This document shows, in pieces, positions 1 to 64,000 of a stretch of DNA of 64,000 nucleotides. The notes beneath the pieces were generated by a model. The model searched no databases. It worked only from the letters and a program-made list of their open reading frames with translations, and was not told the DNA's origin. The first letter of the stretch is position 1. The number at the start of each line of letters is the position of its first letter. Source of the DNA: Psammoneis japonica (lineage: Eukaryota); assembly GCA_008632985.1 (NCBI GenBank), contig QPGO01000008.1, forward strand, positions 1 to 64,000. Reading direction: 5' to 3'. A program made the translations under genes and the position numbers.

Positions 1-1002
1 ACGCTTGTTTTCCTTGAAACAACATGTTTGTTTTCCTTGAAACGACATGTTTGTTTTCCCTGAAACAGCGCGTTTGTTTTTCTTGAAAACACATGTTTGT
101 TTTCCTTGAAAAGACATGTTTGTTTTCCTTGAAACCACATGTTTGTTTTCCCTGAAATGACACGTTTGTTTTCCTTGAAAAGACAAAATTGTTTTCCTTG
201 AAAAGACACGCTTGTTTTCCTTGAAACGACGTGTTTGTTCTCCTTGAAACCACGTGTTTGCTTTCCTTGAAAACACACATTTGTTTTCCTTGAAAAGACA
301 TGTTTGTTTTCCTTGAAACAACATGTTTGTTGAGATGACTTTGAAGCAACATGTTTGTTTTCTTTGAAACGACGCGTTTGTTTTCCTTCAAAAGACACGC
401 TTGTTTTCCCATGACATTTTTTTTGAAATGACGTGTTTGTTTTTCTTGAAACAACATGAGTGTGCCTTGAATTCTGTGCAAGAGCGCACTGACGGAAGCA
501 AACCAACATGATTCCATGTGCAGGAGAACAGCATCTGCGCCCCACAAGAAGCTTGCGCCTGTCCCCAAGTGCAGTTGGATCCATGAGACTGCAATGTGCA
601 GCAATTTGTGGGGTTGACCCTCTCCCAGATGAAGATGTGTGATGCCTCTGGAATGCTTGAGCAGCGCCCACAATTGAGCAACTCCTTGTTTGATGTCTGG
701 CGGTCAAAACCCACCACCGCCAAGAGTTTGTGGGGCACACAAGATGAGTTGTTTTGTGCTTCAGCTGCACCCACATTTGAACATGTTTGTTTTTCTTGAA
801 AAGACATGTTTGTTTTCTCTGAAAAGACATGTTTGTTTTCCTTGAAACGACGCGTTTGTTTTCCTTGAAACGACATGCTTGTTTTCCTTGAAAAGACATG
901 TTTGTTTTCTTTGAAATGACATGTTTGTTTTTCTTTAAACGACATGTTTGTTTTCCTTGAAACCATGTGTTTGTTTTCCTTGAAACAACACGTTTGTTTT
1001 CC
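1..1002. repeat. 23-bp tandem satellite (consensus ~ACATGTTTGTTTTCCTTGAAAAG), interrupted by ~320 bp of non-satellite DNA at ~459-780; runs off the window start
   Basis: Direct tandem units are visible. Minus-strand translations recur every 23 aa (3 x 23 nt). Confidence 0.95.
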
Positions 1003-1667
1003 TCAAATTGGTCAGGAACTTGGGAGGAATGGGCAAAAAAGGCGGCAAAAAGGCAAGTTGACAATCTCAGAAACACGGTGTGTTCGGCTGCTGGGGCGGA
1101 GGCAATGGCCCGTAAGTTGGGTGACCAATGTGTGTGACTCGAGAGTTGCACGCATCTCACAAGAAGATGACGGTGATGCTTTGTCTGTGCAGGCGTTGTC
1201 GCCAAGGAAGAGGGAAAGGAAAAAGAAAAGAAACTCAAGGCGGCAGTCAAGAGGAAAAAGCAAGGCAGGAAAAAGTCAAGCCGTGACAAGAATGAAAAGA
1301 AAGACATCCCGATTGTGCCGACATGGGATCCGCTTGGCCCAGACACTGTCGCTGGCAGCAAACAAAGGAACAAGCAGGCATGCAAGTGGTTCTGTGATCA
1401 CACCCCTGTTTGCAAAAATTGACAAACCAAGGATTGTGTGGCAGTGCAATCATGGATTGGCACATGGCAACAAGGTGGAGGCAGAAATGGCGATGTGGGC
1501 ACTGTGAAAAATGGCACACATGATTCTCAACAAGTTGTCGCGACATTGGCACAGCAAACTTGCAACCAGAGGTTGGAGCGTCATTGTGCGACAACAATTT
1601 TTTGCAACATTTTGACAAATTGTCATCATGCAAATCCACACATTTTTGGCATTTCGTGCACTCTGAT

Positions 1668-1883
1668 GCGTGTGTTGTGCACAGCATCATCACACAGCAT
1701 TTGTCCAACTCTCCCTCTCATCACAGGATGGGTTGTCGCCATGTGGCACATCTGCACAGTGGACTTGCGAATTAGACCATGCACTCCCTCTGTCAGGCAG
1801 GATGGGTTGGTGCCATGTGGCGCATCCGGCCAAGGGAGGAGTGGGTTCGAAGCCCAGCCGCCCACCCCGGATGGGGTTGGAAA
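1668..1883. repeat. Partial unit of a ~412-bp tandem repeat (left flank of Copia-1 insertion)
   Basis: Matches 8916-9130 (tgtgttgtgc.cagcatc.tcacacagcatttgtccaact...ggatggggttggaaa). Confidence 0.9.
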
Positions 1884-2065
1884 CGAACAAATGCCGATGC
1901 AGCCGCGTGGGGCAATGACAGCACCTTAAGCCCAAGAGCAGCAGTGACAAACCAAAGAGAACCCTGTGTCGATTAGATCGCATGAGATTGTGGGAAAGAA
2001 CAAACCACCAGATCGTGCGCGTCAGCCCCGGACCAGGGACTGACCGCTCCACCCAGATTTGCTCG
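1884..2065 (-). repeat. Copia-1 3' LTR (182 bp)
   Basis: Direct repeat of 8533-8714. Imperfect inverted ends cgaacaaat/atttgctcg. Confidence 0.92.
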
Positions 2066-2229
2066 GTCCCCGCGAAACGGCAGTGACAACGCCGATTCGT
2101 CTAAACCTGGAACATCCTCTCATAGAGAGGCAAACACAAAACCCAAATTCAGACCACCAGCAATGCTGGCTTGGGAGGCCGAAAACACGTGGGCGCGAGC
2201 CGCAGGTGTCTGGCCTTGGTGTCGGGGCT

Positions 2230-5200
2230 CTGCCAAAAGATGCAAGAGCAAAGTTTCCAACGCCGCTCTCCCGTCGTCACCTTCGTAAACAAATCCGCCA
2301 AATTCGTGTCGTGTCCTCCTTCCCGACGCGAGTGATGCCAGCCGCAACCGCTTCACGAACCAAATGACAGTTGATGGCATTGTGCTTCTTGTGCAACACA
2401 GATTCCGGAACACTGACGTTCTTCACCACGCCGTGGTTGTTGCAAAATACATTGGCAGGGCCTTCAATCGGCACTCCAAACATACGAAGTTTGTAACGCA
2501 AAGCAACAATCAACTCCTTGCGGGTGCGCATCACAACCAATTCGCTGCCAAACGTCGCCGACTCCACTGTGTTCTGCCGCTTGCTAAACCAAATGATCGG
2601 AGCATTGTTCACGAACATCAAAATCCCGCCATGCGATCTGCGAGTGACAACGTTTCCCGCATGGTTGGCGTCAACAAATGCAGGTGTGTTTGCCGGGTTG
2701 CCACGGGGCTTGGGCATCCGTGGCGGCAACTCCTCCTCAACGTCCCCATAAAACTCCGTCCAGTCCGCAGTGGAATTGAAAACAGATTCGTCAATCACAG
2801 GCATCTTCGGGTCAAAACCAATGCGACCGACATTCAAATGCTTCTTCACACACGCGAACACGTGGTGCAACGCTTCGAGGTGCCCTTTCCTTGGGTTGGC
2901 TTGACACTGAGAGAGAATGGAAACTTCATGCAAGACATCGACACGGCCCAACTCGATCGCCCAACGACAAATGCCAATCAACTGCAAACACCTGTCTGCC
3001 AAATCGGGTCCCAACTCGTCCGTTGCGTCTAATTCCGGCTTGCACTTAGAAGGCAGTGGGTCCCTCACATTGTTCTTCAAGACTGCTCCGTCACCGTCCT
3101 CTTCTAACAGCCCTTCCACCATCTTGATCGCCGACTTGACACACGACTTCGGTGAGCTTGCCCAAATGGTGCGCCCATCTTCGGTCTGAACCTTCTCGAC
3201 GTCGGCTCCAAGGCACAACGATGGCTCTCCTTCACTCCCAGGTTTGACAGCAAATGATTCACCTGTGCTCTCAACAATGGATTTTCCTTGATGAGAAATG
3301 ATTAGAATGTCGTCAACACAAACCAAAAGCATTTCATAACACTCGTGCCCATCGTCGCGAGTTGCCGCACGAATGTGAACGTCGGGATCCGCCTTCATTG
3401 ATTCAAAACCCATGTTCCGTAAAACCGATGCCAATGCGGACCTCCAAGAGCATCCAGAGCTCTTCAAACCGCACAGCGCTCGAGTCACAACTAGAACCTT
3501 GCCTTGGCACTCTCCACATTCCCTGCCACCTTCGAACCAGATCTTCTCGCACACGGGGCATTCAAACACGCGTTCTCCAGGTCGACAGCCGCAATGTCCA
3601 CTCCATTCAATGCTGCCAGCAGGAATCCTAACCGCACGCCATCCCTCGAAACAACACTTGAGCATGTGATCGATGATGGTGTTTCCGCAGTGTGACCTCC
3701 TGCAACAAATCTGGCCTTCCCAGTGAAATCCATCTTCACGTCAAATGCCAAATGGCACCTGATCTCCTGATGACCACGCAAAGTTGCACTCTTGCCTTCC
3801 CGGACGACTTGAGGGGTTTCAGCTTCATGTTCGCGCCACGCTGTCTTGACCTTGTTCATCTCCTTGTCAATTGCGCGAGCCCAACAGTCCGTCCCCGTTT
3901 CCTGGTCAATCTTCAAAGCATCTTCCGTAGACTTGGGTAAACGCGTGCCGAACTTGTGGGTGGTGCGCCAATGTTTCTTCTTGACCTTCGAGATGATGCG
4001 ATTCCGCTTGCGTAAAACATGCGTGACCCACCAAGCAAACACCGGTTCTTCGGTTAACCTGTTCGCTGCAGCATGCTCAGCAAGTTCAATCGGGTTAGAC
4101 TCCTTCAGATCCTTGAGTTTCACCCACGACGAGCTGCCGTCCTTCCATGCGACCAATGGGTTCCATCCTTTCGCAGTTGTCTTCTCATGTTCGTTCCCAT
4201 CAGCTGTCTGAACTGTTCCTTCCTGGATCGGCACAGCTTCGCCGGTCTTTTCGTGATCCTGTGTCTCCCGCAAAATAGAGTGCTGGTTGCCTTCGCTGTC
4301 AACTTGAGCAAACACATTCTCCGCGATCACATTGGCAGTGTGCTCATCTCTGGTGCCGTCTGTGCATTCAATCTCATGTTCGCGGGTGTCAAACAATGGA
4401 TTCTGATGCCGGGTTCCAATCGGTCGCCCATCCTGACCTCGTGCCCACTTGACTGCGACTCCTCGCCGTTCAGCGTTAGTCCCAACATCAAACATGAGTT
4501 CCATTCCGAGACATTGATCAATTGCCTGTTCGTCGTCGTCCTTGGGTCGTTCTCCTGGCAATGACATGTCCCCGCACTCCTCATCGGTTGGTGTCACACC
4601 ACCTTCATGTTCCACGCCGGGGTTGCCGTCGATCGCCAAATCATCCAATGCAAATGCTGGTGCCGCTTCGTCGCCTTGTAAAACGAAATTGGTGTCATCT
4701 AACCATGCCTCCAGTTGTTCGTTAAACTTGTCGACTTTCACACGAATGTCCGGCTGCACCATGTCGGCCTGCGTTGCATGCTTGACCGAAGTCTTCGAAA
4801 CTGTCTTCCCGGATTCCGTGATGATCCAATGACACATGTCCGATCCGACCTTGTGAGACACACCAAGCCATCGTCCAAGCCTCCTCAGGTCATCTGTTGC
4901 ATTCGGCTTGTCGTGTCTGTCCCACCACCAGACCAGATCACAGAAACCGAAGTCCAAATGCTCGCCTGTTTCGGGTGTCTGACCAGCTGCCTCTTCACAC
5001 CCAGTCCGTTTGTCGCGGCCTCTTGCCATGCGAGACACAAGTTCCGATTCACAAACTAGACCAAAATCCCACAATCGTTTCGGTGCCTTCTTCCTCGTCA
5101 TCCGCAGGCGCCAACGCTCAGCCAAGAACCCGATCTCTCTTTCTGCTGTGTGATTCTGATTCTTACGACCTTGTTCCGTTGTCCTGAGTTGGACCCTCAT

Positions 5201-6370
5201 TCGACGTGCGTGTTTCACAAACTCGGCACTTCGTCCTGTGAACTCTCCAGCACCATCCGACATGAGATGCTCCGGCACTCCCACATCGTCTGTAAAGTCA
5301 ACGAGAGACAAACCTGCCTCCGACCTTGCGGTCATTGGCACAACCTTTACGAACTTGCCCTGAGTGTGAACATTGGCACAAGTGTTGCCGAGCAAAGACT
5401 TCACCTTGGATGTTAACGTGTCCACAAACCATGTCCCTTTTAATCTTTTTCGATGCAGGTCCAAGTGATCCACCCTGACTCTCCTTGACATTGGTTGGGT
5501 CGCCGTCCNNNNNNNNNNNNNNNNNNNNNNNNNNNNNNNNNNNNNNNNNNNNNNNNNNNNNNNNNNNNNNNNNNNNNNNNNNNNNNNNNNNNNNNNNNNN
5601 NNNNNNNNNNNNNNNNNNNNNNNNNNNNNNNNNNNNNNNNNNNNNNNNNNNNNNNNNNNNNNNNNNNNNNNNNNNNNNNNNNNNNNNNNNNNNNNNNNNN
5701 NNNNNNNNNNNNNNNNNNNNNNGACTGGAGACAATCGAGTGAGTTCAGCTTCAACCTCGCCCCATTGGACTGCTTGAGACTCAGCCCTGTCGCTCTTCAT
5801 TTCTGAAATCTGTTCCTGTCTCATGCCAGATGTCATTGAACGGATGGCACGCATCTCAGATTGCTCCCTTGCATGCTGTGGCAAACCCATGTCGACTTCC
5901 ATTGGACTCCATGCGTCTCCTGTTGGCAGTGTCACTGGCAAGTTCTTCTCCTCCCAATCCGTCGGAACACGAGACTTGAAAGATGCAATTGTCCCCGTGG
6001 AATTGAAAGGTGTGAAAGCTTCATCAGCTTTGACTCCAAACCCATTTCGAGTGTCGCAAGGGTTGTCGTGTGCGGGCACATCACACGCTCGCAACTGATT
6101 GGGGTTCAACAATGAATGCTGCATGTCAGCTCCAAACCATGGCATTTGGTCTCCAACCAGCAAGCACTCGCGAGTCGTTTCCGGATCCATCCATGCTGTG
6201 CAACAACGCGCCACAGGAATCTGTTTAACCGGCTCACACGAATCTAGAAACGGGTGCACTTCACAGACTTCGTTCGTCAATTCCACAAGTTTCCAGTTGG
6301 CGCCAGCACAACAAGCATCCACATGAGTGTCACATTCGTTCCTTGCCATGAAGCCGGGTGTCGTTAAGTT
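2230..6370 (-). pseudogene. pol: Copia-1 pol (protease, integrase with chromodomain-like C-terminus, reverse transcriptase, RNase H); frameshifts near 3555 and 2310
   Basis: ORFs 3491..6550 and 2277..3665 carry Copia motifs with Tyr replaced by Cys or His. Confidence 0.92.
5509..5722. other. Assembly gap (214 N)
   Basis: Run of N. Confidence 1.
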
Positions 6371-6559
6371 CGTCATCGCGGTGGCAGTCGTTGACCTCAT
6401 CACACGTTTCGAAGTCACAGCAACGCGCCTTTTCGTCACCTTCTCTTGCAAATGAAACATTGGGTGGGGTCCAGTTAACAACATGATGAGCAACATGAGT
6501 GCAAATGACATGTGCACCAAATGCACCAACGCTCCCGTAGTTGAAACCACCCCGATCAG

Positions 6560-8084
6560 TCAAACATGACCTTGACAGGCCCCTCGACCGAAAGCGCGCC
6601 CATTCCTGCCACCATGATCACGGTCAGCTCCGCGACCGCGGCCACCGTTTTCACCTTGCGCTTGACCTTGCTGCCCTTGACCTTGACGGTCTTGAACCTG
6701 AGCTTCGGCTGCTTGCCTGTTGCCTCCGTCGCATCCGCCTCTTCCTGTGGGGTTTCCTCGACCACCGCGTCCGTGCATCCTTTCACGAGCTTGAAAAACA
6801 CAATTGAGACCTCCGTTAAAGCGCAATCTGTCCCATTCCTGGTCGGCAAATGTCCTCGTAGGATCCGATGCATCGAATCCGTCAATCACAGTTGTGTGAT
6901 CACCGCCCCTTCCTTGATGTCCTCCGCGTCCTCCACCGTGGCCAAATCTGCCGCCACGCCCACAACCGCCACGATGGAAACCTCGGCCACCACCGCCACC
7001 TTGGCTGATCTGAGAAATCTTGCGCTTCGCATGACGCCGGGCTTCCAACTGAGCACCTGCATGCAAACGAGAGACTTCGGATGAGAAATGAGCACACGCC
7101 CCCGCGAAGTCACGAGGGTGCTGGTTGCCAACAACGGCCGTAGCCGCCACAAGACGGGCATCCTCCGATTTGATGCCCTTCTGCAACATTTCAACCTTCT
7201 GCCGAGCAGACATGCTTTCATCCGGAACCTCATCCAAAGTGGCAAAGGCACTGGTGAGTTTCTCCGTGAATTTCTCAAACGCAAGTGCACCTTCCTTTTT
7301 TGTAGAATGACGTTTCGATGTTGGCCTTGGCCAAATGAACTCACTTGCTCAATTCGCCTTCGCCATTGCAATGGTTGACCCAGGCCCAGAATGCTTCACG
7401 TCCATTCTCTGTTGCGTCGCATGGTTCAATCCAAGCCCAACCAGCTGCATCAATCAAATGCTCTTTTAACATGCGATGCACGTGACGATTGTCCACATCA
7501 AACGCGTCTCCGGCAAGCGGCAACTGATGCATGCGCTCCTCCTGATTGTCCGCGAACTCCGCCGGTGCAGGCATCCTCCTCACGACACATTTCAACGGCT
7601 CCTCAAGCACACCAAGCTTCTGCGCCAACAAGTTCAAGAAAGCGTCTTCACACACGTCAAAATCTTCCGCTTTGAATTTGGTGAGGCTGTCAACCGTCGC
7701 AGTGGATTCCGTAAACTCCTTTTCAATGCGCCTGCCGTCCCCAGCCGCCGCCACAGCTGCAATGTTAAAATTCGCCGCAACCAGTGGCTGGCTCCGTTTC
7801 GTTAAATCTCTCAACCACCAAACCAACGCCTGCAAGTTCTTGATCTGCATCGTCCCCAGCGTCACGCGTCCATCGGCTGCTGCACGACGAGCCGCCCTTT
7901 GGGCTAGATCCTCAACATCATGGTCCGTTTCCACAACAGCAATGTTCTCAAGAGCAGCAAACCCTTCATAGAAAACAAGCCTCGCCCCAGCGTGTTGGTC
8001 AACAACACCACAAACTTGCAACACCGCATCTGCGTCAGCCGCCGCGGCCAAAGCCGCAAGTGCCACTGCTGGTGCCGCTGCCAT
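6560..8084 (-). pseudogene. gag: Copia-1 gag (RG/GG-rich C-terminal region); in-frame TGA at 7341 and frameshift near 7295
   Basis: ORFs 7341..8147 and 6560..7237 lie upstream of PR. GR-rich nucleocapsid-like tail; NGREAFWAWVNHCNG resembles a copia gag motif. Confidence 0.8.
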
Positions 8085-8519
8085 CCTGTGATGAGAGAAA
8101 CAGAGGCAACAACCCATGCAATGGGTCGCAATTTGGTGTGAGTGCACATGGCACAGGAGGCTGCACCGACCGGTGCCGTGATGATGGGTTCACGCAGCCA
8201 ACCGACTTCGGGGTGATCAATCCCGTGTCGTTTCCATCGTGAGCACACGCTCGGGCACACTGCCCAATGCCGCAGTCGTTCCACACCCGTTGACAACATG
8301 GAGATGGTGACTGTTTTGCGAGCATTTTCCGTTGCAAGCTGTTTCCTTTGGTCGTCATACGCGACACAGAGCACACGCTGCACGCGACAACCCCCTTTTG
8401 ATGCCACGTGTGCAAATCAGCACATTTTCTACAGCTGCTCGTTCCATGCACACAATCACAACAATCAACCGTTTGCAACGAGTTGCTTCCTCATCCGTTT
8501 CGTTCAGCTTTTCATCAAT

Positions 8520-8532
8520 GGCTCTGACAAAG
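8520..8532 (-). promoter_or_regulatory. Putative tRNA-iMet primer-binding site of Copia-1 (CTTTGTCAGAGCC; cf. canonical TGGTATCAGAGCC)
   Basis: Directly follows the 5' LTR on the minus strand. TCAGAGCC core is intact; TA appears as TG. Confidence 0.6.
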
Positions 8533-8714
8533 CGAACAAATGCCGATGCAGCCGCGTGGGGCAATGACAGTGCCTTGAGCCTGAGAGCAGCAGTGACAAA
8601 CCAAAGAGAACCCCACGTCGATTAGATCGCATGAGATTGTGGGAAAGAACAAACCACCAGATCGTGCGCATCAGCCCCGGACCAGGGACTGACCGCTCCA
8701 CCCAGATTTGCTCG
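8533..8714 (-). repeat. Copia-1 5' LTR (182 bp)
   Basis: Direct repeat of 1884-2065. Confidence 0.92.
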
Positions 8715-9368
8715 GAAAGGGGCAGGCCGAGAAAGAAAAGGAGGCTTGGATTTGAGGCCAATTCGAGCCAGCGACCTCAGAAAGTGCAAAGACTCACAAC
8801 CAGTCAGAACGCTGCACACTGTCCTGGCAAGTGCAGGAGGTTCTCAACAACCCAAGAGGCAAAGAAGTTGCCACTCGGCTGGCTGTTGAGTCCCTTCTCC
8901 GCGCACACATTTGGGCGTGTGTTGTGCGCAGCATCGTCACACAGCATTTGTCCAACTCTCCCTCTCGTCGCAGGATGGGTTGTCACCATGTGGCGCATCT
9001 GCACGGAGGACTCACGAATTTGACCATGCACTCCCCATGTTGGGCAGGATGGGCCAGCGCCATGTGGCGCATCCAGCCAAGGGAGGAGCGGGCTTGAAGC
9101 CCAGCCGCCCACCCCGGATGGGGTTGGAAAGGGGTGGGCTGAGAAAAAAAAGGAGGCTTGGATTTGAGGCCGATTCAAGCCAGCGACCTCAGGAAGCACA
9201 AAGACTCGCAACCACTCAGAACACTGCACACTGTCCTGGCGAGTGCAGGGGTTCTCAACAACCCAAGAGGCAAAGAAGTTGCCACTCAGCCAGCTGTTGA
9301 GCCCCTTCTCCGCACACACATTCAGGCATGTGTTGTGCACAGCATCGTCACACAGCATTTGTCCAACT
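8715..9368. repeat. ~412-bp tandem repeat, ~1.6 units
   Basis: gaaagggg...ggaggcttggatttgaggcc... starts at 8715 and again at 9127. Confidence 0.9.
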
Positions 9369-9369
9369 G

Positions 9370-12316
9370 AACATGTCCTTTCAAGGAAAACAAACATGTT
9401 TTCCTTGAAAAGACATGTTTGTTTTCCTTGAAACCACATGTTTGTTTTCCTTGAAACCACATGTTTGTTTTCCTTGAAATGACACGTTTGTTTTCCTTGA
9501 AAAGACATGTTTGTTTTCTTTGAAACAACATGTTTGTTTTTCTTGAAAAGACATGTTTGTTTTCCTTGAAAAGACATGTTTGTTTTCCTTGAAACCACAT
9601 GTTTGTTTTCCCTGAAACAACACTTTTGTTTTCCTTGAAACGACATGTTTGTTTTCCTTGAAAAGACATGTTTGTTTTCCTTGAAAAGACATGCTTGTTT
9701 TCCATGAAACGACATGTTTGCTTTCTTTGAAACCACGTGTTTGTTTTTCTTGAAAACACATGTTTGTTTTCCTTGAAACGACATGTTTGTTTTCCTTGAA
9801 ATGACATGTTTGCTTTCCTTGAAAAGACACCTTTGTTTTCCTTGAAAAGACATGATTGTTTTCCTTGAAACCACGTGTTTGTTTTCCTTGAAAAGACATG
9901 TTTGTTTTCCTTGAAATGACACATTTGTTTTCCATGAAACAACATGTTTGTTTTCCTTGAAACAACACGTTTGTTTTCCTTGAAAACACATGCTTGTTTT
10001 CCTTAAAATGACATGTTTGTTTTCCTTGAAAAAACATGTTTGTTTTCTTTGAAACAACACGTTTGTTTTCCATGAAACAACATGTTTGTTTTCCTTGAAA
10101 CCATGTGTTTGTTTTCCTTGAAAACACATGTTTGTTTTCCTTGAAACGACATGTTTGTTTTCCTTGAAATGACGTGTTTGTTTTCATTGAAAAGACATGT
10201 TTGTTTTCCTTGAAAAGACACGTTTGCGGCATGTTTGTTTTCCTTGAAAAGACATGTTTGTTTTCAACACATGTTTGTTTTCCTTGAAACCACATGTTTG
10301 TTTTCCTTGAAACAACACGTTTGTTTTCCTTGAAAAGACACGCTTGTTTTCCTTGAAAAGACATGTTTGTTTTCCTTAAAAAGACATGCTTGTTTTCCAT
10401 GAAACGCCATGTTTGTTTTCCTTGAAACCAAATGTTTGTTTTCCCTGAAAACACATGTTTGTTTTCCTTGAAAAGACACCTTTGTTTTCTCTGAAAAGAC
10501 ATGCTTGTTTTCCGTGAAACGACATGTTTGTTTTCCTTGAAACCACATGTTTGTTTTCCTTGAAACCACGTGTTTGTTTTCCGTGAAACGACATGTTTGT
10601 TTTCCTTGAAATCACATGTTTATTTTCCTTGAAAAAACACACTTGTTTTCCTTGAAATGACACGTTTGTTTTCTCTGAAAAGACATGTTTGTTTTCCTTG
10701 AAATGATGTGTTTGTTTTCCTTGAAAAGACATGTTTGTTTTCCTTGAAAAGACATGTTTGTTTTCCTTGAAATGACAGGTTTGTTTTCCTTGAAACTGCA
10801 TGTTTGTTTTTCTTGAAATGACACCTTGGTTTTCTCTGAAAAGATGTGTTTGTTTTCCTTGAAACGACACGTTTGTTTTTCTTGAAACGACACATTTGTT
10901 TTCCTTGAAAAGATGTGTTTGTTTTCTTTGAAACAACATGTTTGTCTTTAAACGACATGTTTGTTTTCCTTGAAAAGACATGTTTGTTTTCTTTGAAAAG
11001 ACACGCTTGTTTTTCTTGAAACGACATGTTTGTTTTCCTTGAAAAGACATGTTTGTTTTCTCTGAAACCACATGTTTGTTTTCCCTGAAAATGCACATTT
11101 GTTTTCCTTGAAAAGACATGTTTGTTTTCCTTGAAACGACACATTTGTTTTCCTTGAAAAGACACATTTGTTTTCCTTGAAAAGACATGTTTCTTTTCTT
11201 TGAAAAGACATGCTTGTTTTCCATGAAACAACATGTTTGCTTTCCTTGAAACCACATGTTTGCTTTCCTTGAAACAACATGTTTGTTTTCCTTGAAACGA
11301 CACGCTTGTTTTCCTTGAAAAGACATGATTTGTTTCCTTAAAAAAACATGTTTGTTTTCCTTGAAATGTTACATTTTTTTTCCTTGAAAAGACATGTTTG
11401 TTTTCTTTGAAACGACATGTTTGTTGAGGTGACTTTGAAACAACATGTCTGTTTTCTTTGAAACAAGGTGTTTGTTTTCTTTGAAAAGACACGCTTGTTT
11501 TCCTTGAAATGACATGTTTTTTTCCCCTGAAATGACATGTTTGTTTTCCTTGAAACCACATGTTTGTTTTCCTTGAAACCACATGTTTGTTTTCCTTGAA
11601 ATGACACGTTTGTTTTCCTTGAAAAGACATGTTTGTTTTCTTTGAAACAACATGTTTGTCATTCTTGAAAAGACATGTTTGTTTTCCTTGAAAAGACATG
11701 TTTGTTTTCCTTGAAACCACATGTTTGTTTTCCCTGAAACGACACTTTTGTTTTCCTTGAAACGACATGTTTGTTTTCCTTGAAAAGACATGTTTGTTTT
11801 CCTTGAAAAGACATGCTTGTTTTCCATGAAACGACATGTTTGCTTTCTTTGAAACCACGTGTTTGTTTTCCTTGAAAACACATGTTTGTTTTCCTTGAAA
11901 CGACATGTTTGTTTTCCTTGAAACGACATGTTTGTTTTCCTTGAAAAGACATGTTTGTTTTCCTTGAAAAGCCATTTTTTCCCTTGAAGCAACATGTTTG
12001 TTTTCCTTGAAAAGACATGTTTGTTTTCAAGACATGTTTGTTTTCCTTGAAACGACACGTTTGTTTTCCTTGAAAAGACATGTTTGTTTTCCTTGAAATG
12101 ATGTGTTTGTTTTCCTTGAAAAGACATGTTTGTTTTCTTTGAAAAGACATGCTTGTTTTCTTTGAAACCACATGTTTGTTTTCCTTGAAACCACATGTTT
12201 GTTTTCCTTGAAACAACGTGTTTGTTTTCCTTGAAAAGACATGTTTGTTTTTCTTGAAATGACACGTTTGTTTTCTCTGAAAAGACATGTTTGTTTTCCT
12301 TGAAACGACATGTTTG
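9370..12316. repeat. 23-bp tandem satellite array (~2.9 kb) with higher-order duplications and one inverted head unit
   Basis: Same unit as 1-1002. Confidence 0.97.
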
Positions 12317-13423
12317 CCAAGGTTTTTTGCAAGAATCTGAAAGAGTTGTTGTCACAATCAAACCCAACCTCTGGCTCACACAAGTGGCTGAAAACCTGGA
12401 GTTCATCAAACCTGGCATGGAGTTTGAGAGCACTTGGATGAAGACAAAGCCACAACAGGTGACACCACACATTCATGCCCAAAGCAGTGCTGGGGGCTTG
12501 TGTGTTGTTCATTCCTGCAACAACTGCCATCATTGTGGCACATCTCTTTGTCATCATTTTCATCATCAACGGTGTTGGTGCTCAGTGCTTCATCAACTTT
12601 TTCATGTTGTCATCTGCACTGGCTTCTTCTTCCTTGAGCTTGGCATGGGGTGCACCACCCTCAATCACTGAAGGTGCCCTTGCACTCCTCTGTGCTCTTG
12701 GGCATTCCTGTGGCTTGTCTTTGGGGGCATCGGCCTTGCAGAGTTGGCCAGTTTGCAGGGCAAATGAAGAGCCTTGGGGAGCTTCCATCTGTGTGTGTTG
12801 TCGGGTGTTGCGGCTCTTCTTTTCAATGCATTCATCCAAGAAACATGGCACACATGCACATTGCAATGCTTGCTTGTCAGAAGCACCAGGTGGAAGACAA
12901 CAACCACTCCAGCCCAGTGGCAAGAGTTGAGGAAGGCAAGCGAGGGGAGGCACCTCTCCCTTCGAAGTGTTTGTGCTCAGAAAGTTTGGCTTGTGTGCTG
13001 GCCAGTGGTTGCTGGCAGGCACAGCTCTTCTTTCTGCAACTCTGCTCACTGAATCAGGGAGAATGGAGGGCCAACACTTGCTCTTGCGCAGCTAATCTCA
13101 GCATGTTTCTCGATGCTTTGGACTCATCGGGGACAGCAGCAGACAGTTTCCGTTCGTTCGTCGCATCGCGGCGGCTCGCTTTTGTCCTTGCTTTGTGTCT
13201 ATTTAGTTTTTGGAACAATGTCAATTCAATTTTTATTATCAACAATTTTGTACCACAACGTCTTTATACTTCCTTTAACTTTGTATACAAATGTTGTTCA
13301 ATTTTTGTTGGAGTCTCCAGTATCAAATGTGTTGTGAAATTCCTGTAGAAAAGACAAATTGAAAACACTCACGATTCACTCCATCCAATCGCGATATCTG
13401 CAGAGAAACACAAAAATTTGCCA

Positions 13424-16289: not shown

Positions 16290-16299
16290 ATCAGCATAT

Positions 16300-31899: not shown

Positions 31900-32548
31900 G
31901 GTCAAAACTGCTGGGCAGTGCATTGCCTGTGTCAGACTCATGTTGGTGTGCAAGCCACAGCCACAGCAGCAGCTTTCGTAACATTTCCAGTGCTGCGCAG
32001 TTCTCCAACAGGAAGACTTTCCATGACACCGTGGTTTTTGGGTGGGCAAAGCAACGCTCACAATTTTTCACTGCGCCAAAAGAAACAATGGCAAGCGGAG
32101 CATTGACAGTGCTTCAGGTTTGTTGCTCCACTGCAACCACTGTCCTCAAACAAACAGCGTTGTGCTGTGCTTCTGGTCTGCAGCACTGAGCTCTGACTGC
32201 CCTTGTTTTGTTGAGCCCATTGTTTTGCTTTTTGTCATCCATGATTTTAAAACATTTTTTCCTGTGGTGTTGATGACAAGCCAGAGTCTGCAACAACTCA
32301 GCCAGCAAGATTCTTGTGAGAAAAGCTCAGCCATCTTTCTGCTGCCTGAGAGCACCACACTTCAGCTGCTGCCCAACAATTTGGGCTCTTGCGCAACCCA
32401 ATTTTGCCAGAAAGCAGCACTCAAAATGTGGCCATGTGTTGTCAAAGCATTGGCTCATCAACCAGGCAGGGGCACATCTCTTTGTGCACTGTTGCAGCAG
32501 TGCCAGGTGCCACATGTTGGGCACCAAATGCTGTGGCTCTTAAGTTGA
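31900..32548 (+). pseudogene. Eroded host-like gene remnant resembling the C-terminus of diatom LRR/RNI-like proteins
   Basis: LLPNNLGS...KMWPCVVKAL...TSLCALLQQ resembles L..N..G....LWP.VL....S.LY.LL after Tyr->Cys correction. Confidence 0.35.
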
Positions 32549-35500
32549 GGTGAAAGCACCTCCTCTCTTGGCTTTTGGGGGGTTTCTTGGACAGACACTT
32601 TTTCCAGATGCTGGCGGTGGCAATCCATGTGACATTGGGTCTGCAAAATTTTGTGTGAAATCTCCAGCTGCAGCAAAGTCCCCAGGTGATGAACACATCA
32701 ACAATTGCCAACAGAAAAAGAAGCAATTTGGCAAAAGCACAAACTCGTCCATGGTTGAAGTGCATCATCTCTCACTCAGCCTGGCACATTCTTCAAACAT
32801 TGAAGAATGCACTTGGCACATTGTTGTTCCCACAAAAGCACCAAACAAAAAGTCTTGAGCTTTGCAAAACAGGGAGTGTGGGACAATTCTGTGGAAGAGC
32901 ACATGGAGAATTGTGTGCGCGAAACATGCACGTGCAAAACACACGATGGATGACAAAAAAACAAGTGTGTCTCCCGCCTGTGGCTGGACCATGTCAACAG
33001 CCAATTTGGTGCATTTCAACAATGCATGGAACAGCTCCATTCCAACAACAAAATTTGAGCACAGCCTGCATTCCAACATCTCAGAAAGCATGCTCCAAGT
33101 GCATCTTCAATGTTCTCACAACTGCTTGCCACACAAACCCTTTTGATGGTGCAGGGTAAGCTGGCAGACTGTGTGTGGTCAAGCAAAGTTTTCAAGAACT
33201 CCAAGCGCAAGTCCAGAATGTGGGGGGGGGCACTGCAATGCTCAGCTGCATGCCCTGGCCACAGAAAGCAGAGCAGAGCATGATGAAGTCACCCCGCAGT
33301 TGGCGGCATTGCCTGATGCTGCTGAACGGAGAGCACCAATGGAGCAAAACAATGTGTGCATCATGGGGCATTTTGCAGCAGTGCTGCAATGTGGTGGTGA
33401 GTGTGCCATGCATTGTGTCACAGAGAGGCATCATGATTTGAGCACAGCAGCAGGAGAAAGAAAATCCTGGGAGTTTGAGTTTGGACCTCAAGTGATGTGA
33501 AACTTGGCTGGTTTCATGAGCACTTGGAAAAACACAGATGTGGTTTCCAACAACATCTTCAAGAATCCTCAGCTGGCTTCTGTAGAACAGTGAGCTCAGA
33601 GTTGCTCTTCTTGCCATTGCACAAAGAACACAAAGCTTGGCCTTGTGAAACATGTTGGTGCCTTGAGTGCACAGTTGCTTCAGCTGCCTGCTGAGTGCAA
33701 GTCATCAACTCTTGCCCTCATTTTGTGAGCTGGGTCTGCTGCAGCAGCAGCAAAAGATGCTGAGTGCTGACTGCACATGAGAGTTGCCACATGGGCCTCA
33801 CAGGGCTTGGACACTTCAGGTTTTCCTCTGTGCACTTGACTGCACACATGTTTGAAAGCTGGTTTGTTGAGACAAGCAAACAGGACTCCCCCCCCCCCGT
33901 CAACTCCAGCTGTGGCTCCAATGGGGAAGCAACATGCAATGCCAGCAAACTTGCTGTTTGTGTGCATGTGCCAAATGCCTGCAGAGTTGTGCTGGCCACA
34001 GCTCACTTTTTGTTTGCAGCTGTGTTGCACAAATGGTGCACCTTCAGAGGGCTGGCTGTTGCATCAAAGAGTGCACGCCAAATGCCTGCTGACACCAGCT
34101 TTTTTCCTGGAGGTTGCAAAGTGGCCTGGATTGCTTGATTGAGGTGCTTGTCCTCCAGCACCACCCACCTCACATCTGAGCCCTGAGCCCTCCCACAGGC
34201 CTTGTAAGCCTGTGGGTTTTGGCCCACTTTGGCCAGCAATCACATTCTCCATGTCCCACAGCATTTGAGGTCTGCATGTTTGGCTTGTTTTGGTTGCTCT
34301 CACTGACACTTGTGCTTCACAACTTGTGCTCTTTTTCTGATTTTGAACTCCATTTTCACAGATGATGTGAGAGGAGAAATGCAACAAGAAGGAGGGCTGG
34401 AGAGAAGCTGCACACCCACCTGGCCACCCATGTCTCCTCTCGTGGTGATGGCTCTGCCCCCCATTTGAAGAGCACAACATCTCTCCTGCCAAGCCTGCTG
34501 ATCAAGCCATCCCCTGATGTCCCAGCTTCTCATCTTCATTGCACACACAAAGCTTTGAGACATTTGTCAAGTGGCAGTGCCCCCCAACATCTCTTTTCAA
34601 GCAAGACAAGGCTGGTTTGGTCAGGACCAGATCAAGTTGAAGAGTGCACCTGTCTGAAAACTGTGTCTCTGCTTCACAAAAAAGGGTTCTGCAGCCTTTG
34701 TCACTTTGTTCCTGGCACTCTCTGTCAAGCTGAAGCTCAAGGCAGTCATGCAAAAGCTTTGGCAGCTGGCTCAGAGCATGCAACTGAATTGCAAAGCTTG
34801 TTGGATTGCAGCTGGCACCAAAAGCACATCTGCCTTGATTGTGCCATGTGTCTGTCATTTTGCATGTTTTCAGGGCACATCCATTTGCTCACACACAGTG
34901 AGGCATGCAATGATGGCCCCACTGACCATCTCAAATGTGCCTGAAAAATTTTTGCACATCTTCCAGCATGCATTTCTTGAAGACCTTCCTGTTTCTCTCA
35001 TGTTGGTCTTGACATCAACAGCAAGGTTGCTTGTGTGATCACTTTTTGTCATTGTCAGCCAAGAGGCCTGTTCCAGCTCCAGGTGCTCCGCTTTTCATCA
35101 TGCTAGATTTTCTGTGCAGTTTTCAGCTCCAGACATTTTTGTCTCCACCCAGCAGAGCTCGCACTTTTTGGCTTCATGCAAACATTGATTGCTCCAATGA
35201 TGTGATGCATTCATGACATTGATGCTCATGTGCAACAACTGAGGTGCACAATGCGTCACAGGAAGAATCATGTCAGTTGGCATTCAATGTTTTTCTGGTG
35301 ATGCACAGAACAATGCTGACCCATGCGAACACGTGCGGTCCACCCAACACACACCAGCCATGATGCAGCACACCGCTGTCACAGCTCCACAACCCCCTCT
35401 TCACCCTTGCGGTTGCATGAAACCATCTGTTCCTTTCATTTCAAAGTCACGTCATTGTCGTCGCAATGCGGCTGCGGCTCTAAAGAGTTGCTGTTGTTGC

Positions 35501-35740
35501 GGACAACACCATCTCTTCGCATTCTCTCGTTTCGAATTCGGCAAGTCGCTCTGTCGTGTTTTTTTTTGTGCGTCACCGCACGCGTGCATTTTTCTGGTTG
35601 CTTGCTTCTCACATCTCGTTTTGTGGTTGTTTTGCACCAGGGCCTTCGGAATTTCTACAAAACTCAAGTGTTCGCCCGAGCATTCTCCGAGTGACAGTTT
35701 CTGCTGGAACAAACTTGTCTTGGTTTGTTTTCACTGTGAC

Positions 35741-35991
35741 GCTTGCTGTTTGCACTTTTCAGCATCTGGAACTGCCTCAGAGGCTGCCTCTGTTCATCCG
35801 CATCACTTTTGCGGTGACTGACGTTGGCCCCCTCTCTGGAGTGCATTTGTCGTGCAAGCAGGCACGCAGCTTGCTGTTTGATGCTTTTCAGCATCTGAAA
35901 CTGCCTTGGAGGCTGCCTCTGTTCATCCGCGCCACTTTCGCGGCAACTGGCGTTGGCCCCCTCTCTGGAGTGCATTTGTCGTACAAACAGG
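35741..35991. repeat. Two-copy ~128-bp tandem duplication inside the transposon
   Basis: gcttgctgtttg...cagcatctg.aactgcct..gaggctgcctctgttcatccgc... at 35741 and 35869. Confidence 0.9.
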
Positions 35992-36014
35992 AGTGCAAAA
36001 GCAGTGCATTTGCC

Positions 36015-36857
36015 ATGGACATGTTGGCCAAAGTAGCCTCCCAGCAGCGTCCCATTGGCGGCACTTCCCCTCAAGCAAGCGATGACTCTTCCAGCACGTT
36101 GAAGGTTTCCTTTTGTGTCCAGCGTTGCATCAAGGCACTCACGGAACATTGCCCACCGCAGGGTGAAGCCAAAACTTGGTGCACTGTGCCTCTCCAAGAT
36201 GCAGCTGATCCCCTTGAGTGCCCTCAAGGTCTTGTAGATTTGAGCATCTTGACCACAGAAGATTGTGGAACAAAGAAGACGAGCCCTCTCTTTCATGTTC
36301 TTCATCACAAGAATGGTTTGGATGGGTTCAACAGCGCCAAAACACGGAACATGTTCTGCAACACTGTTGTTGATTGGTTTTGTGAAAAATTTGACTCCAA
36401 GAATCAACCACAACTGAACCAACACATCAAGGACAAGAACCAGCACCTCTTGATGTTGGTTGTGGTGCCATCAGGAATGTTGATGAGGGATGCCATGAAG
36501 GACAAGCAAAACATTGCTGCTGTTTTGATGCACTGTGTCAAGACAAACATTGGCCTGCTTGTTGATTGCGTCCGTGTGACAGAGTCTCTGGTTGTGTCGG
36601 TTGGGACGGGCAATGAGAGTGAATCAATCACACCGTTGAGTTGAGGTGCATGTCCTTTTTTGATTGGACTTGCCCAAGCCATTTGCTGTGGTGTTGTCAA
36701 GAAGATGGATGCATGTCTTCATTGTCAGAAGACTTTGAAGTCTCACTGCATTGGAGTGATGGGTTTTGAGGACATCACGGACACCATGAGTGATCGTTCC
36801 GACCTGGCGGACGTCCGCAAGCACTGGGACTGGGATGATCTCATGATGAATGATTGA
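36015..36857 (+). pseudogene. Transposon cargo ORF, possibly GNAT acetyltransferase-like; one in-frame TGA at 36642
   Basis: LLVDCVRV...S*GACPFLIGLAQAI...LKSHCIGVMGFE; after Tyr restoration it resembles GNAT motifs A and B (..YY..MGF). Confidence 0.35.
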
Positions 36858-37344
36858 TGCAACACTGTTGCCCTGTGTGCAAAGGAGAGGATTGCTCCAA
36901 TGAGCTCTGCAATTGTTTTGGCATTGCCTCATTCCAGCGCTGAGTGTCAGAACGTCGCAACAGAGATCCGCAAGAATGAAGACTGTTGGGAGGAACCGCT
37001 TGTTGAAGGAGGATGCATTGCTGATCATTCGTGCAATGCCAAGCACTGATTCCACTTGGCATCTTTGGTCAACATTCACAACCTAGAAACGTGTGATGAT
37101 GAAAAGTCGACCAAAGATTTAAAGACGCGTCTTTTGGCTGCCTTTTGGCGAGGCCGTGTTTCAAAGTTGGTGGCAAATTAAGTCTCCAAAGGGAGTGAAG
37201 AACAATTTTGAAATGTTGGCTTTGAAGGGGTTGCACGTCAAGTTCTGCTGTGAAACAAGACATCCTGTTCTATCTGCAAAACAGCGCTGGGGTTCAATCT
37301 GCAACCATTGCTCTGTTCCAAACTAAATCGCTCAGAGGAAGCAG

Positions 37345-39650: not shown

Positions 39651-39659
39651 ATTGCCACT

Positions 39660-42566: not shown

Positions 42567-42571
42567 GGTGG

Positions 42572-42765
42572 TGTCAGCCCATCTGCACCTGTCGCATGAT
42601 GGACAGACTGGATGCGGATGATGGCTGGACCATTTGGATGGACAAGCAGATCTCTCTGAGATCTGCTTCTCACTTTCTCATCTGCTGGCACTCATGTCAT
42701 CACAGTCCTGGTGCTCCAGGGAGTCTTTCACACCTCTGTCACTGTCGACCTTCGGCATTCTGTCA
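42572..42765 (+). repeat. Copia-2 5' LTR (194 bp)
   Basis: Direct repeat of 49550-49742. Confidence 0.95.
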
Positions 42766-42777
42766 GGTTGTGGCCAC
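42766..42777 (+). promoter_or_regulatory. Putative PBS GGTTGTGGCC (cf. copia half-tRNA-iMet PBS GGTTATGGGCC)
   Basis: Directly follows the 5' LTR; TA appears as TG. Confidence 0.65.
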
Positions 42778-42943
42778 ACGCTGTGCCACAGACCTCTGCG
42801 CCAAGCTTTCTGTCTCGATCCATTTGTTTTGTGAGCCGATCAAGCGAGCCTCATCATCTGATCCGACAACTTTTTGTCTCGCTTTCCCGGCATTTTTCAC
42901 GACCGTAGAAACACGCCAGATTTCCACGCGTGCATGACCAAAA

Positions 42944-48900: not shown

Positions 48901-49372
48901 TCAACTCGTTGCTTTCTTGGATGCTGCTTGTGGCAATGACCTCCGCAACCGTCGTTCTACGACTGGCCATGCTTGCATGTCAGCTGGTGCTGCCACATCT
49001 TTTCGATGCAAGACCCAATCGGTGACCGCTGCGAGCTCTACGGAAGCTGAATTTTGTGCTGCTGGAACTGCTGCCAAGCATGTCCTGCACCTTCGTCACG
49101 TTCCACAGGACCTGGGCTTCCCTCAGACGGAGCCAACCCCGTCACACATTGACAACGAATCGGCGATCAAGATCATCAATCACTCGATCCTGACTGAGCG
49201 ATCCCGTCACATTGAGATTCAGTTTTTTGCGATCCAAGAATGGAAGGAAGCGGGCAAGATTGTCACGAGACATGTTCCTGGCATTGTCAACCCCAGCGAT
49301 GACCTCACCAAGGCCCTTGGCTGGGTGCCACACGCTCGCCACGCTTGACGCATGATGGGACACTGCTGTTGA
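42944..49372 (+). pseudogene. gag-pol: Copia-2 gag-pol (CLVCSGEHLFDDC zinc knuckle, PR, IN, PDZ-like domain, RT, RH); in-frame TGA at 46694, 47762, 48632 and 49346
   Basis: Collinear ORFs 42944..43534, 43778..44992, 45014..46696, 46709..47764, 47927..48634 and 48650..49348. Confidence 0.92.
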
Positions 49373-49540
49373 CATTTTTTTCCACGGTGGCCTCCCTGCT
49401 GCGCATTGCCCTCTTGTTTGATGGCGTGTTGGGCATGGACACTTCTTGCGTCCTGTGTCTGGTCTCTCTGTTTTTTCCTCACATCATCCCTGTTCTTTGG
49501 TTTGATCTGCACTGTTCTCTGTGTTGAGATGTCACAGATC

Positions 49541-49549
49541 AGGGGAGGG
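49541..49549 (+). promoter_or_regulatory. Polypurine tract AGGGGAGGG of Copia-2
   Basis: Directly precedes the 3' LTR. Confidence 0.85.
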
Positions 49550-49742
49550 TGTCAGCCCATCTACACCTGTGCATGATGGACAGACTGGATGCGGATGATG
49601 GCTGGACCATTTAGACAGACGAGCAGATCTCTCTGAGATCTGCTTCTCACTTTCTCATCTGCCAGCACTCGTGTCATCACAGTCCTGGCACTTTGGGGAG
49701 TCTTTCATGCCTCTGTCACTGTCGACCTTCGGCATTCTGTCA
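49550..49742 (+). repeat. Copia-2 3' LTR (193 bp)
   Basis: Direct repeat of 42572-42765. Confidence 0.95.
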
Positions 49743-63902: not shown

Positions 63903-64000
63903 GGCGTCGAGGAGACTGCAGAGATAGCACAGAAGAAAAATGTGAGAAAAACTGATGTTGTGTGATCGAGTGGACGACACATGAGAGGAATACGGAATCG

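Follow-up and report, generated by a model that had tools for sequence, protein, structure and literature searches.

TpA-directed hypermutation after insertion probably separated the LTRs of a Copia-type element in a repeat compartment of a diatom genome

The closest described process is a hypermutation from TpA to CpA/TpG that arose de novo in integrated viral DNA, in mutation-accumulation lines of the chlorarachniophyte Bigelowiella natans (Mettrop et al., bioRxiv 10.64898/2026.01.13.699255, 2026). In the available text of that preprint the changes are A:T-to-G:C only, take place at TpA, yield TpG and CpA, and are confined to foreign or silenced DNA beside normal genes. The long-term trace is TpA depletion with CpA and TpG enrichment in clustered 1-kb windows, and reverse transcriptase and DDE domains are over-represented in the TpA-poor coding sequences of that genome. 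The locus described here, in a 64,000-nucleotide stretch of the diatom Psammoneis japonica (contig QPGO01000008.1; this whole stretch is called the window), shares with B. natans the direction, the context, the products, the confinement and the clustered long-term trace. It differs in its host, a stramenopile, in its targets, which are LTR retrotransposons, a satellite and other repeats instead of a giant-virus insert, in a far deeper erasure (TpA o/e 0.00-0.18 against 0.45 in the NCLDV region of B. natans), in the depletion of also CpG in its older parts, and in being known from its footprint only, not from de novo mutations. Same-strand tracts of kilobases are seen here, and none are reported in the available text on B. 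natans.

Fungal RIP is likewise DNA-level, dinucleotide-specific and transition-only, acts on repeated or foreign DNA, and ruins transposon ORFs while sparing the adjoining genes. According to the RIPCAL abstract and to general knowledge of the process, RIP changes C to T mainly at CpA, so that TpA is made and GC lowered; here, unlike in RIP, TpA is destroyed instead of enriched and GC is raised. Methyl-CpG decay of silenced transposons also turns a palindromic pyrimidine-purine step into TG or CA on either strand, and occurs in the window too. APOBEC3 and ADAR editing resemble the present case as deaminase-type, context-dependent, strand-coordinated transition clusters in retroelements, but their substrate is pre-integration cDNA or RNA, and they yield a single polarity (C-to-U, seen as G-to-A, or A-to-I). 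In the present case the two LTRs are unlike, changes of both polarities are found, and DNA other than retroelements is hit too. A literature search on TpA, RIP or hypermutation in diatoms found no such process within the terms used, and in the sources available a TpA-erasing, genome-defence-like mutation has so far been reported in one other alga only.

The window contains a minus-strand Copia-type element (Copia-1), situated in a repeat-rich compartment, and a second element (Copia-2):

1879..1883, no strand: left copy of the target-site duplication (TSD), GGAAA; the same five bases follow LTR copy B
1884..2064, minus strand: LTR copy A, 181 nt, the 3' LTR in the element sense, 95% identical to 8533-8713
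2065..8532, minus strand: internal part of Copia-1, recognised from ORFs, an RVT_2 profile match below the Pfam cutoff and homologues
7344-8189 and 6563-7348, minus strand: gag-like ORFs of Copia-1 (ORF list)
3491-6559 and 2280-3740 (RT/RNase H), minus strand: pol ORFs of Copia-1 (ORF list)
5509-5722: run of N within Copia-1 (self-comparison)
8533..8713, minus strand: LTR copy B, 181 nt, the 5' LTR in the element sense (MAFFT and gap-free comparison)
8714..8718, no strand: right copy of the TSD, GGAAA, flanking LTR copy B
9126..9130, no strand: empty paralogous insertion site, where GGAAA occurs once, within the following copy of a local 412-bp repeat
42572..49742, plus strand: Copia-2, with LTRs at 42572-42765 and 49550-49742, TSD GGTGG and termini TG..CA

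The repeat pair of the original prediction was real, but its ends, placed at 2065 and 8714, were one base too long, because that G is a TSD base in copy B. The direct terminal repeats of 181 nt and the short 5-bp TSD are those of a Ty1/copia element. The LTR termini on the plus strand are CG...TC and not TG...CA; 5'-TG...CA-3' termini are usual in Ty1/copia LTRs, not obligatory. The empty site was located through the alignments of the local repeat, 1668-1883 to 8915-9130 and 8693-8957 to 9105-9368. The Copia-1 pol matched Pfam RVT_2 with an E-value of 5e-5 and 23.4 bits, under the 31.6-bit cutoff, and the ORFs upstream of the RT had no Pfam matches, although tblastn to relatives does reach the upstream ORF; the weak scores are due to heavy Tyr-to-Cys/His damage. 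Altogether 2166 homologues were found, and PF07727 was present in most of the best 120 of these. Self-BLAST found no further LTR or body copy of Copia-1 in the window, the LTR used as a degenerate pattern had no matches in metagenome or viral contigs, and Rfam had none in the window. Copia-2 has the domain order gag_pre-integrs, SH3_retrovirus, RVT_2.

The Copia-1 LTRs differ at nine positions and by no indels over 181 nt, according to both MAFFT and a gap-free comparison:

1922-1923 CA versus 8571-8572 TG: cluster 1
1928 A versus 8577 G: cluster 2 (TA/TG)
1933-1934 CA versus 8582-8583 TG: cluster 3
1922..1934: copy-A side of clusters 1-3, CA, TA, CA versus TG, TG, TG at 8571-8583
1965..1967 TGT versus 8614-8616 CAC: cluster 4, read as a TA-derived doublet and one TG/CG change
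2021 G versus 8670 A: cluster 5 (CG/CA), a CpG-type change

All nine are transitions and, as had been predicted, all lie at pyrimidine-purine dinucleotides in both copies, forming three CA/TG doublets, one TA/TG, one TG/CG and one CG/CA. Such steps cover 88 of the 181 LTR positions; of 200,000 random draws of nine positions, 0.12% placed all nine within them, and at least four adjacencies among nine random positions arose in 0.017%. The Copia-2 pair behaves similarly, with 15/15 substitutions being transitions (five CA/TG doublets, two TG/TA, two CA/CG and one further C/T, besides one indel column), and the LTR divergence of the two elements is 5-8%.

Since the two repeats are the LTRs of one element, bounded by a TSD of 5 bp and matched by an empty paralogous site, the differences post-date, or at the earliest accompany, integration, which supports the prediction that the mutation acted on the chromosomal DNA of an already inserted element. 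Derived CA and derived TG are found in each of the LTRs, and therefore both strands were hit, again as predicted. The reading of CA/TG as opposite resolutions of a palindromic TA or CG also stands, TA being favoured over CG for the doublets by the undepleted CpG, the retained Arg codons and the site model described below. A TA-type origin does not extend to all differences: two changed bases (1967/8616 and 2021/8670) are CpG-type, while the rest agree with it.

The nine sites were polarised by the site model and the coding part of the element, not by an LTR family consensus, because a third LTR copy was not found in the window or in the contig collections scanned. Tyrosine makes up on average 3.9% in the relatives (best 120 of 2166 homologues), but there are only 4 in 1982 aa of the Copia-1 ORFs and 7 in 1894 aa of the Copia-2 ORFs; four host ORFs have 47 in 1296 aa. 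At the 26 conserved Tyr columns of Copia-1, Tyr was kept in 3, replaced by Cys (TGY) in 11 and by His (CAY) in 6, and by other residues in 6, so that 17/26 codons were altered to TGY or CAY. Non-Tyr conserved columns were kept in 349/550 cases (Fisher p = 1.3e-7 and 1.4e-8 for the polarised conserved-column test). The host RCL1 protein, used as a control, kept its one conserved Tyr column (1/1), which is under-powered.

The composition points the same way. All 57 metagenomic relatives have TpA o/e of 0.61-0.89, against 0.14-0.17 here. Compared with the nine closest relatives, the shift in TA is by far the largest, CA is up, CT, TT and AA shift less, and GC is higher (0.52-0.54 versus 0.46-0.49). 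Among the 16 dinucleotides only TA collapses (from 0.70 to 0.17 and 0.05), while CA/TG rise and AT stays at 0.96-1.05. The change thus runs from A:T to G:C, with TA as the lost state, and is restricted to the TpA context.

The loss is confined to two compartments of the window:

1..13000: first TpA-free compartment, with a 23-bp satellite, Copia-1 and local repeats; TpA o/e 0.00-0.18
32000..59250: second TpA-free compartment, with Copia-2; TpA o/e 0.00-0.16, CpG o/e 0.03-0.75

In both, CA/TG are in excess, and the satellite, the 412-bp host repeat and the compartments as wholes are TpA-free like the retroelements. The gene regions alongside (13001-32000 and 59001-64000) have TpA o/e of 0.40-0.77 and CpG of about 1, and the Tyr content of the host ORFs is normal. 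The borders, at about 13000, 32000 and 59250, are sharp to about 250 bp. No Pfam families were found in 28 ORFs of the other TpA-free DNA.

The altered Tyr codons are arranged in tracts:

3770..5368, minus strand: His tract, 6/6 altered conserved Tyr codons CAY, equal to sense-strand T-to-C
2367..3664, minus strand: Cys tract, 11 altered conserved Tyr codons TGY, equal to sense-strand A-to-G

The order of six His followed by eleven Cys along Copia-1 corresponds to 2 of 12376 possible arrangements, and the plus-strand CA/TG skew changes near 3880. A MAFFT analysis added one CAY (His) at 2865-2867, inside the Cys tract; the union of both Tyr analyses has four runs (138/31824 arrangements, p about 0.004 by hand count), and the tract pattern is impure.

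The direction of TA loss, its dinucleotide specificity, its restriction to the repeat compartments, the action on both strands and the same-strand tracts of kilobases are together best explained by post-insertion, DNA-level hypermutation of TpA to TpG or CpA, on both strands and in kilobase tracts, an explanation that we regard as quite probable. After integration, Copia-1 would have been hit like all DNA of the compartment by a context-specific process changing TpA to TpG (A-to-G) or to CpA (A-to-G on the opposite strand). A former TA resolved oppositely in the two LTRs would now appear as CA versus TG, 1928/8577 would be a TA left unconverted in copy A, and the remaining two changed bases would be ordinary CpG-type transitions. 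The chemistry may most simply be adenine deamination in TpA on single-stranded DNA, or alternatively mispairing of oxidised thymine; targeting may follow chromatin state or repeat recognition, and the purpose could be the inactivation of invading DNA. A lead to 5-hydroxymethyluracil in dinoflagellates (available text of PMC11071213 and PMC11572971) was set aside as being without direct support, since the host is a diatom, and a spliced-leader motif had no matches.

The rival that survives best, although improbable, is an assembly or base-calling artefact, in which a symmetric modification at TA (and CG) in silenced DNA would cause strand-specific misreads, and the consensus would become CA or TG at random or by the local majority of read strands. 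It would account for the excess of doublets over singles, for the borders of the compartments and for the tracts on one strand; the records do not state by which technology the assembly and the run X1 were sequenced. This run came from the one study found in a sequencing-run search and contained just 48% of the sampled words of 1600-5500; among the runs listed, no RNA run contained these words. Against an artefact, near-100% clean miscalls without indels would be required, there being no gap columns in the Copia-1 LTR pair, and 370 of the 1618 X1 contigs compared match the window at 99% or more, with high-depth contigs having TG or CA, not TA, at the doublets. Among the X1 contigs, differences are transitions at 423 places and transversions at 48, and CA/TG doublets occur in the coding DNA; these contigs give no independent support, because X1 may be the window's own sample. 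T at 1922, the TA state, was present in at least two X1 contigs and at least one X2 contig among the variants listed (40 of 473), and may be taken as a hint, the only direct one, of TA ancestry at the LTR sites. The same runs of Tyr to His and Cys occur in P0019, a homologue from another public source (ENA; 61% identical), with H7 C5 F1 Y2 at 15 conserved Tyr columns in the order HHHH CCC F CC YY HHH, while P0001 keeps 15/15. The same signature also arose de novo in B. natans lines that, by the available text, were sequenced with Illumina.

Methyl-CpG decay only, by which the doublets were CG at integration and deamination of 5-methylcytosine struck one strand in one LTR and the opposite strand in the other, is slightly less probable still. 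In its favour, two of the nine bases that changed are of the CpG type, and CpG o/e drops to 0.03-0.3 where the compartments are older. The older 23-bp satellite visibly takes its route from CA to TG via CG: its variants are CATG (74), CACG (12), CGTG (6), CACA (5) and TGTG (5), with no TA intermediate. In the older host 412-bp repeats CG/CA singles predominate (10 and 11, against 3 and 5 intact CG), and therefore CpG decay too yields doublets in this genome. In Copia-1, however, CpG is not depleted (o/e 0.84-1.05), conserved Arg is kept in 27/41 columns and only 1/41 has become C/H/Q/W, and the loss of TpA and Tyr would be left unexplained. Ten CpGs of the Copia-1 LTRs are intact in both copies and two singly changed (D=3, S_CG=2, I_CG=10), giving p about 0.09 and about 0.05 doublets expected versus the three seen. 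In the site model, which assumes equal, independent sites, lnL was -11.3 for a TA origin and -19.0 for a CG origin with the Copia-1 pair alone (7.7 units), and -20.0 and -36.9 with both LTR pairs (16.9 units; D=8, S_TA=3, I_TA=1, S_CG=4, I_CG=13). The model implies about 8 ancestral TA, while the LTR composition predicts 5.4-7.8, and under its assumptions TA ancestry of the doublets is favoured over CG. Methyl-CpG decay is also the slower process here, Copia-1 having lost about 80% of its TpA and none of its CpG excess.

Editing before or during integration, by ADAR-like A-to-I changes in the element RNA or deamination of minus-strand cDNA fixed by reverse transcription, is very improbable. 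Edits made late, on single-stranded cDNA, can in principle result in heteroduplex LTRs; edits of RNA would be copied into both LTRs and therefore cannot make these differ. Both polarities are present (6 His and 11 Cys, and CA and TG in each LTR), and the equally TpA-free satellite, 412-bp repeat and whole compartments are not retroelement DNA, so that the original argument against RNA editing holds, even though ADAR favours a 5' U (Discussion of the B. natans preprint, 10.64898/2026.01.13.699255, and otherwise general knowledge). Selection on an LTR RNA stem, with clusters 1 and 4 as compensatory changes, is hardly credible and was rejected on the folds: by eye the cluster-1 arm pairs with the cluster-4 arm in both copies with coordinated changes, but the LTRs fold no better than shuffles (z 0.91 and -0.59), both MFE structures lack the stem, the same doublets run throughout coding DNA and host repeats, and such selection does not act on the LTR pair of a single dead copy.

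If TpA-specific hypermutation is real here, it would be the second, independent case for invading DNA, in another major algal lineage and acting on retrotransposons, and the LTR pair is its cleanest argument for chromosomal, post-insertion action on both strands. A broader proposal, which we put a little short of even, is that diatoms have a RIP-like defence of opposite chemistry, a DNA adenine deaminase or thymine-modifying enzyme aimed at silenced chromatin, one strand at a time over kilobases. Working at a faster pace than CpG decay, it would erase nearly every TpA of new retrotransposons, satellites and other repeats, with all Tyr codons lost and stop codons never made, and together with Bigelowiella would represent an ancient defence of the SAR supergroup. 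The same-strand tracts point to a single-strand-specific enzyme, to be sought in diatom genomes. LTR divergence would not be a clock in such genomes, and LTR dating and ORF prediction would be distorted. As stop codons are not created, ORFs stay open in all frames, and silenced DNA would retain long open stretches in each of its six frames; 'proteins' free of Tyr and rich in Cys/His would be diagnostic of mutated elements. The ESM Atlas yielded only clusters labelled 'RVT_2, mostly diatom'.

The repeat search matched positions 1881–2066 with 8530–8715 at 95%, and together with the concordant MAFFT and gap-free comparisons confirmed that the two stretches bounding Copia-1, a Copia-type element, are a genuine repeat, as originally predicted. 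The left junction of the element reads ...GGTT GGAAA / CGAACA... and the right one ...TTGCTC / GGAAA GGGG..., and the empty site GGTT GGAAA GGGG is found uninterrupted (9126–9130) in an adjacent copy of a 412-bp local repeat. Because of these junctions and the empty site, the LTRs were delimited as 1884–2064 and 8533–8713 (181 nt) with a 5-bp TSD; the predicted coordinates were correct within one base, the LTR ends actually lying at 2064 and 8713. The long ORFs of Copia-1 are on the minus strand, so that the 5' LTR is copy B and the 3' LTR is copy A. The last of these ORFs gave a weak RVT_2 match (E 5e-5, below the Pfam cutoff), but had 2166 homologues, with PF07727 present in most of the 120 listed. 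The second Copia-type element, Copia-2, has the domain order gag_pre-integrs, SH3_retrovirus, RVT_2.

Long terminal repeats and elements
1884–2064, minus-strand element: LTR copy A of Copia-1, 3' LTR, 181 nt
8533–8713, minus-strand element: LTR copy B of Copia-1, 5' LTR, 181 nt
42572–49742, plus strand: Copia-2, LTRs 42572–42765 and 49550–49742, TSD GGTGG, canonical TG..CA termini

In Copia-1 the LTRs lack TG..CA termini and read CG..TC on the plus strand, the ends being set by the empty site together with the TSD. At 5509–5722 the pol ORF contains 214 consecutive N, which represent an assembly gap or else sequence that was withheld. No further copy of the Copia-1 family was found within the 64-kb window.

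The gap-free comparison of the two Copia-1 LTRs showed nine differing bases and no indels (copy A/copy B: CA/TG, TA/TG, CA/TG, TGT/CAC, CG/CA). All nine are transitions. They also all fall, as the original prediction held, at pyrimidine-purine steps, and do so in both copies; such steps cover just 88 of the 181 LTR positions, and nine random positions all fell within them in 0.12% of draws. At least four adjacencies among nine random positions occurred in 0.017% of draws. The derived states CA and TG are both present in each LTR, which bears out the claim that both strands were affected. Two of the nine changed bases (1967/8616 and 2021/8670) are due to CpG decay.

In the whole window the observed/expected (o/e) frequencies were 0.25 for TpA, 0.71 for CpG, 1.45 for CA and 1.49 for TG, and a 1-kb profile showed the window to consist of two sharply bounded types of DNA. 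Positions 13001–32000 and 59001–64000, which include the host genes Peptidase_M64, DUF1415, eIF2-beta and RCL1, had TpA o/e of 0.40–0.77 and CpG of about 1. Positions 1–13000 and 32001–59000 had TpA o/e of 0.00–0.18 and CA/TG of 1.3–2.1, while their CpG o/e ranged from about 1 in the Copia-1 body down to 0.03 at 33–35 kb. At the borders the number of TA per 250 bp rose from 0–1 to 5–18. The LTR differences are therefore one local instance of a TpA loss that extends over the whole compartment.

The direction of change was evident from the reverse transcriptase (RT) region. TpA o/e was 0.61–0.89 in all 57 metagenomic RT relatives (42–74% amino-acid identity); in the nine closest it was 0.70, against 0.17 in Copia-1 and 0.05 in Copia-2. 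Relative to these nine, CA/TG was increased in the two elements and AT unchanged, and GC had risen from 0.46–0.49 to 0.52–0.54. Every Tyr codon contains TA. Tyr was found 4 times in the 1982 aa of the Copia-1 ORFs and 7 times in the 1894 aa of the Copia-2 ORFs, compared with 47 times in the 1296 aa of four host ORFs and a mean of 3.9% in 120 relatives. At the 26 conserved Tyr columns (Tyr in at least 70% of at least eight relatives) Copia-1 retains Tyr at three; 11 are now Cys (TGY), six are His (CAY) and six have other residues. Among other conserved columns 349 of 550 were retained, as were 27 of 41 conserved Arg, just one of which had become C, H, Q or W (Fisher p 1.3e-7 and 1.4e-8). The MAFFT alignment of the RT part with 120 proteins was concordant (15 Tyr columns: three retained, eight Cys, one His). 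TA is therefore the state that was lost, while TG and CA were gained. CpG in Copia-1 has barely decayed.

The ancestry of the LTR doublets (CA in one copy, TG in the other) was analyzed with a site model in which palindromic ancestral steps are hit independently in each copy and either resolution is equally likely.

Site counts per LTR pair (D, discordant doublets; S, singly changed sites; I, intact sites)
Copia-1 LTR pair: D 3, S_TA 1, I_TA 1, S_CG 2, I_CG 10
Copia-2 LTR pair: D 5, S_TA 2, I_TA 0, S_CG 2, I_CG 3

TA ancestors gave lnL -11.3 for the Copia-1 pair and -20.0 for both pairs, compared with -19.0 and -36.9 for CG ancestors. The fitted TA hit probability was about 0.8–0.9 per copy, which implies about eight ancestral TA in the LTR, near the 5.4–7.8 expected from LTR composition. 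Other copies of the family were seen directly only in contigs of one public study matching the locus, which differed from it at 423 transition and 48 transversion places, with CA/TG doublets throughout the Copia-1 coding part. Among the 40 best-supported rows, T at 1922, the TA state at the first doublet, was carried by two contigs of run X1, possibly from the same sample as the window, and by one of run X2. Two X2 contigs (1884–1961 and 8836–8958) had as listed differences from the window C>T at three places and G>A at eight, and nothing else, these 11 being out of 20 other letters; several of the places listed restore TA where the window reads CA or TG.

The altered Tyr codons of Copia-1 were ordered along the element, with six His (5368 to 3770) followed by 11 Cys (3664 to 2367), an order as strict being found in 2 of 12376 arrangements. 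The plus-strand CA/TG skew changes at about 3880. The MAFFT analysis added one His at 2865–2867, inside the Cys tract; the union of both analyses has four runs, and so few occur in 138 of 31824 arrangements (hand count, p about 0.004). A public RT relative of 684 aa from an ENA source, P0019, contains 0.29% Tyr, 5.3% His and 2.5% Cys, and at 15 conserved Tyr columns has H7 C5 F1 Y2 in the runs HHHH CCC F CC YY HHH, while the relative P0001 has kept Tyr at 15 of 15. At the protein level, P0019 carries the same Tyr damage as Copia-1, in a separate public data set. The runs in both point to an agent acting on one strand over kilobases.

Part of the evidence runs against TA ancestry. In the older 23-bp satellite the route from CA to TG visibly passes through CG and TA intermediates are absent, and the variants of its core point to CpG decay. 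The older host repeats include many CG/CA singles. CpG decay thus operates in these compartments as well, more slowly than the TpA loss. The satellite comprises about 150 units in arrays flanking Copia-1 (5–409, 781–1003, 9397–12316) and is essentially without TA. At one position of the unit AG (38), CG (19), CC (17), TG (14) and CA (12) segregate, and the variants of the CATG core are CACG 12, CGTG 6, CACA 5 and TGTG 5. The host repeat of about 412 bp, into one copy of which Copia-1 is inserted, has two to three local copies (8693–9368, 1668–1883) and very high word depth in X1. Its copies show 22 and 23 substitutions, 21 and 20 of them transitions, with four and three CA/TG doublets and 10 and 11 CG/YR singles.

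The very same signature is reported in a 2026 preprint to arise de novo in mutation-accumulation lines of Bigelowiella natans. According to that preprint, 230 of 231 mutations in integrated giant-virus and virophage regions were A-to-G or T-to-C, all at TpA; the long-term footprint consists of clustered windows poor in TpA and rich in CpA and TpG, TpA-poor CDS are enriched in reverse transcriptase and DDE domains, and an ADAT2-like adenine deaminase is proposed (bioRxiv 10.64898/2026.01.13.699255). The window most probably shows a process of this kind at work in a diatom, as which the host is identified by the best named relatives of the RCL1-like ORF at 62931–63902 (Cylindrotheca, Nitzschia, Seminavis and Thalassiosira, 54–62% identity). 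The targets differ, being LTR retrotransposons and satellites here and integrated viral DNA in B. natans; the TpA loss here is also much deeper, and tract structure and co-occurring CpG loss are added to what the preprint reports. The process is chemically opposite to fungal RIP. Its enzyme, targeting and purpose are inferred. A search of a limited literature collection gave no relevant report of such a process in diatoms.

Base-calling artefacts at symmetrically modified TA and CG sites would mimic doublets, borders and tracts alike, but they would require near-complete miscalls without indels, and the signature is also present in P0019 and in the Illumina-based Bigelowiella data; we regard this explanation as very improbable. 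Editing of RNA (in agreement with the original prediction) or of cDNA before integration was rejected, as the two LTRs are not identical, changes of both polarities are found and DNA other than retroelements is affected too.

Within the TpA-poor compartments, 33001–35000 had CpG o/e of 0.03–0.08, TpA of 0.02–0.03, and CA and TG of 1.8–2.0, both palindromic pyrimidine-purine steps being erased; no Pfam family was found among the ORFs tested there. In TpA-free compartments TAA and TAG are almost missing, hence frames are open over long distances in all six frames (the whole window has 115 ORFs of 130 aa or more, counted from stop to stop), and ORF length is no evidence of a gene in such DNA. Host eIF2-beta (59484–60365) and RCL1 (62931–63998) are single uninterrupted ORFs, the former lying about 230 bp from the end of a TpA-free compartment. 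Two tandem arrays lie in TpA-free DNA, one at 53029–53487 with 18/27-bp units in about 26 and 14.5 copies, and one at 35741–35991 with two copies of a 129-bp unit that differ by 11 substitutions, all 11 transitions.
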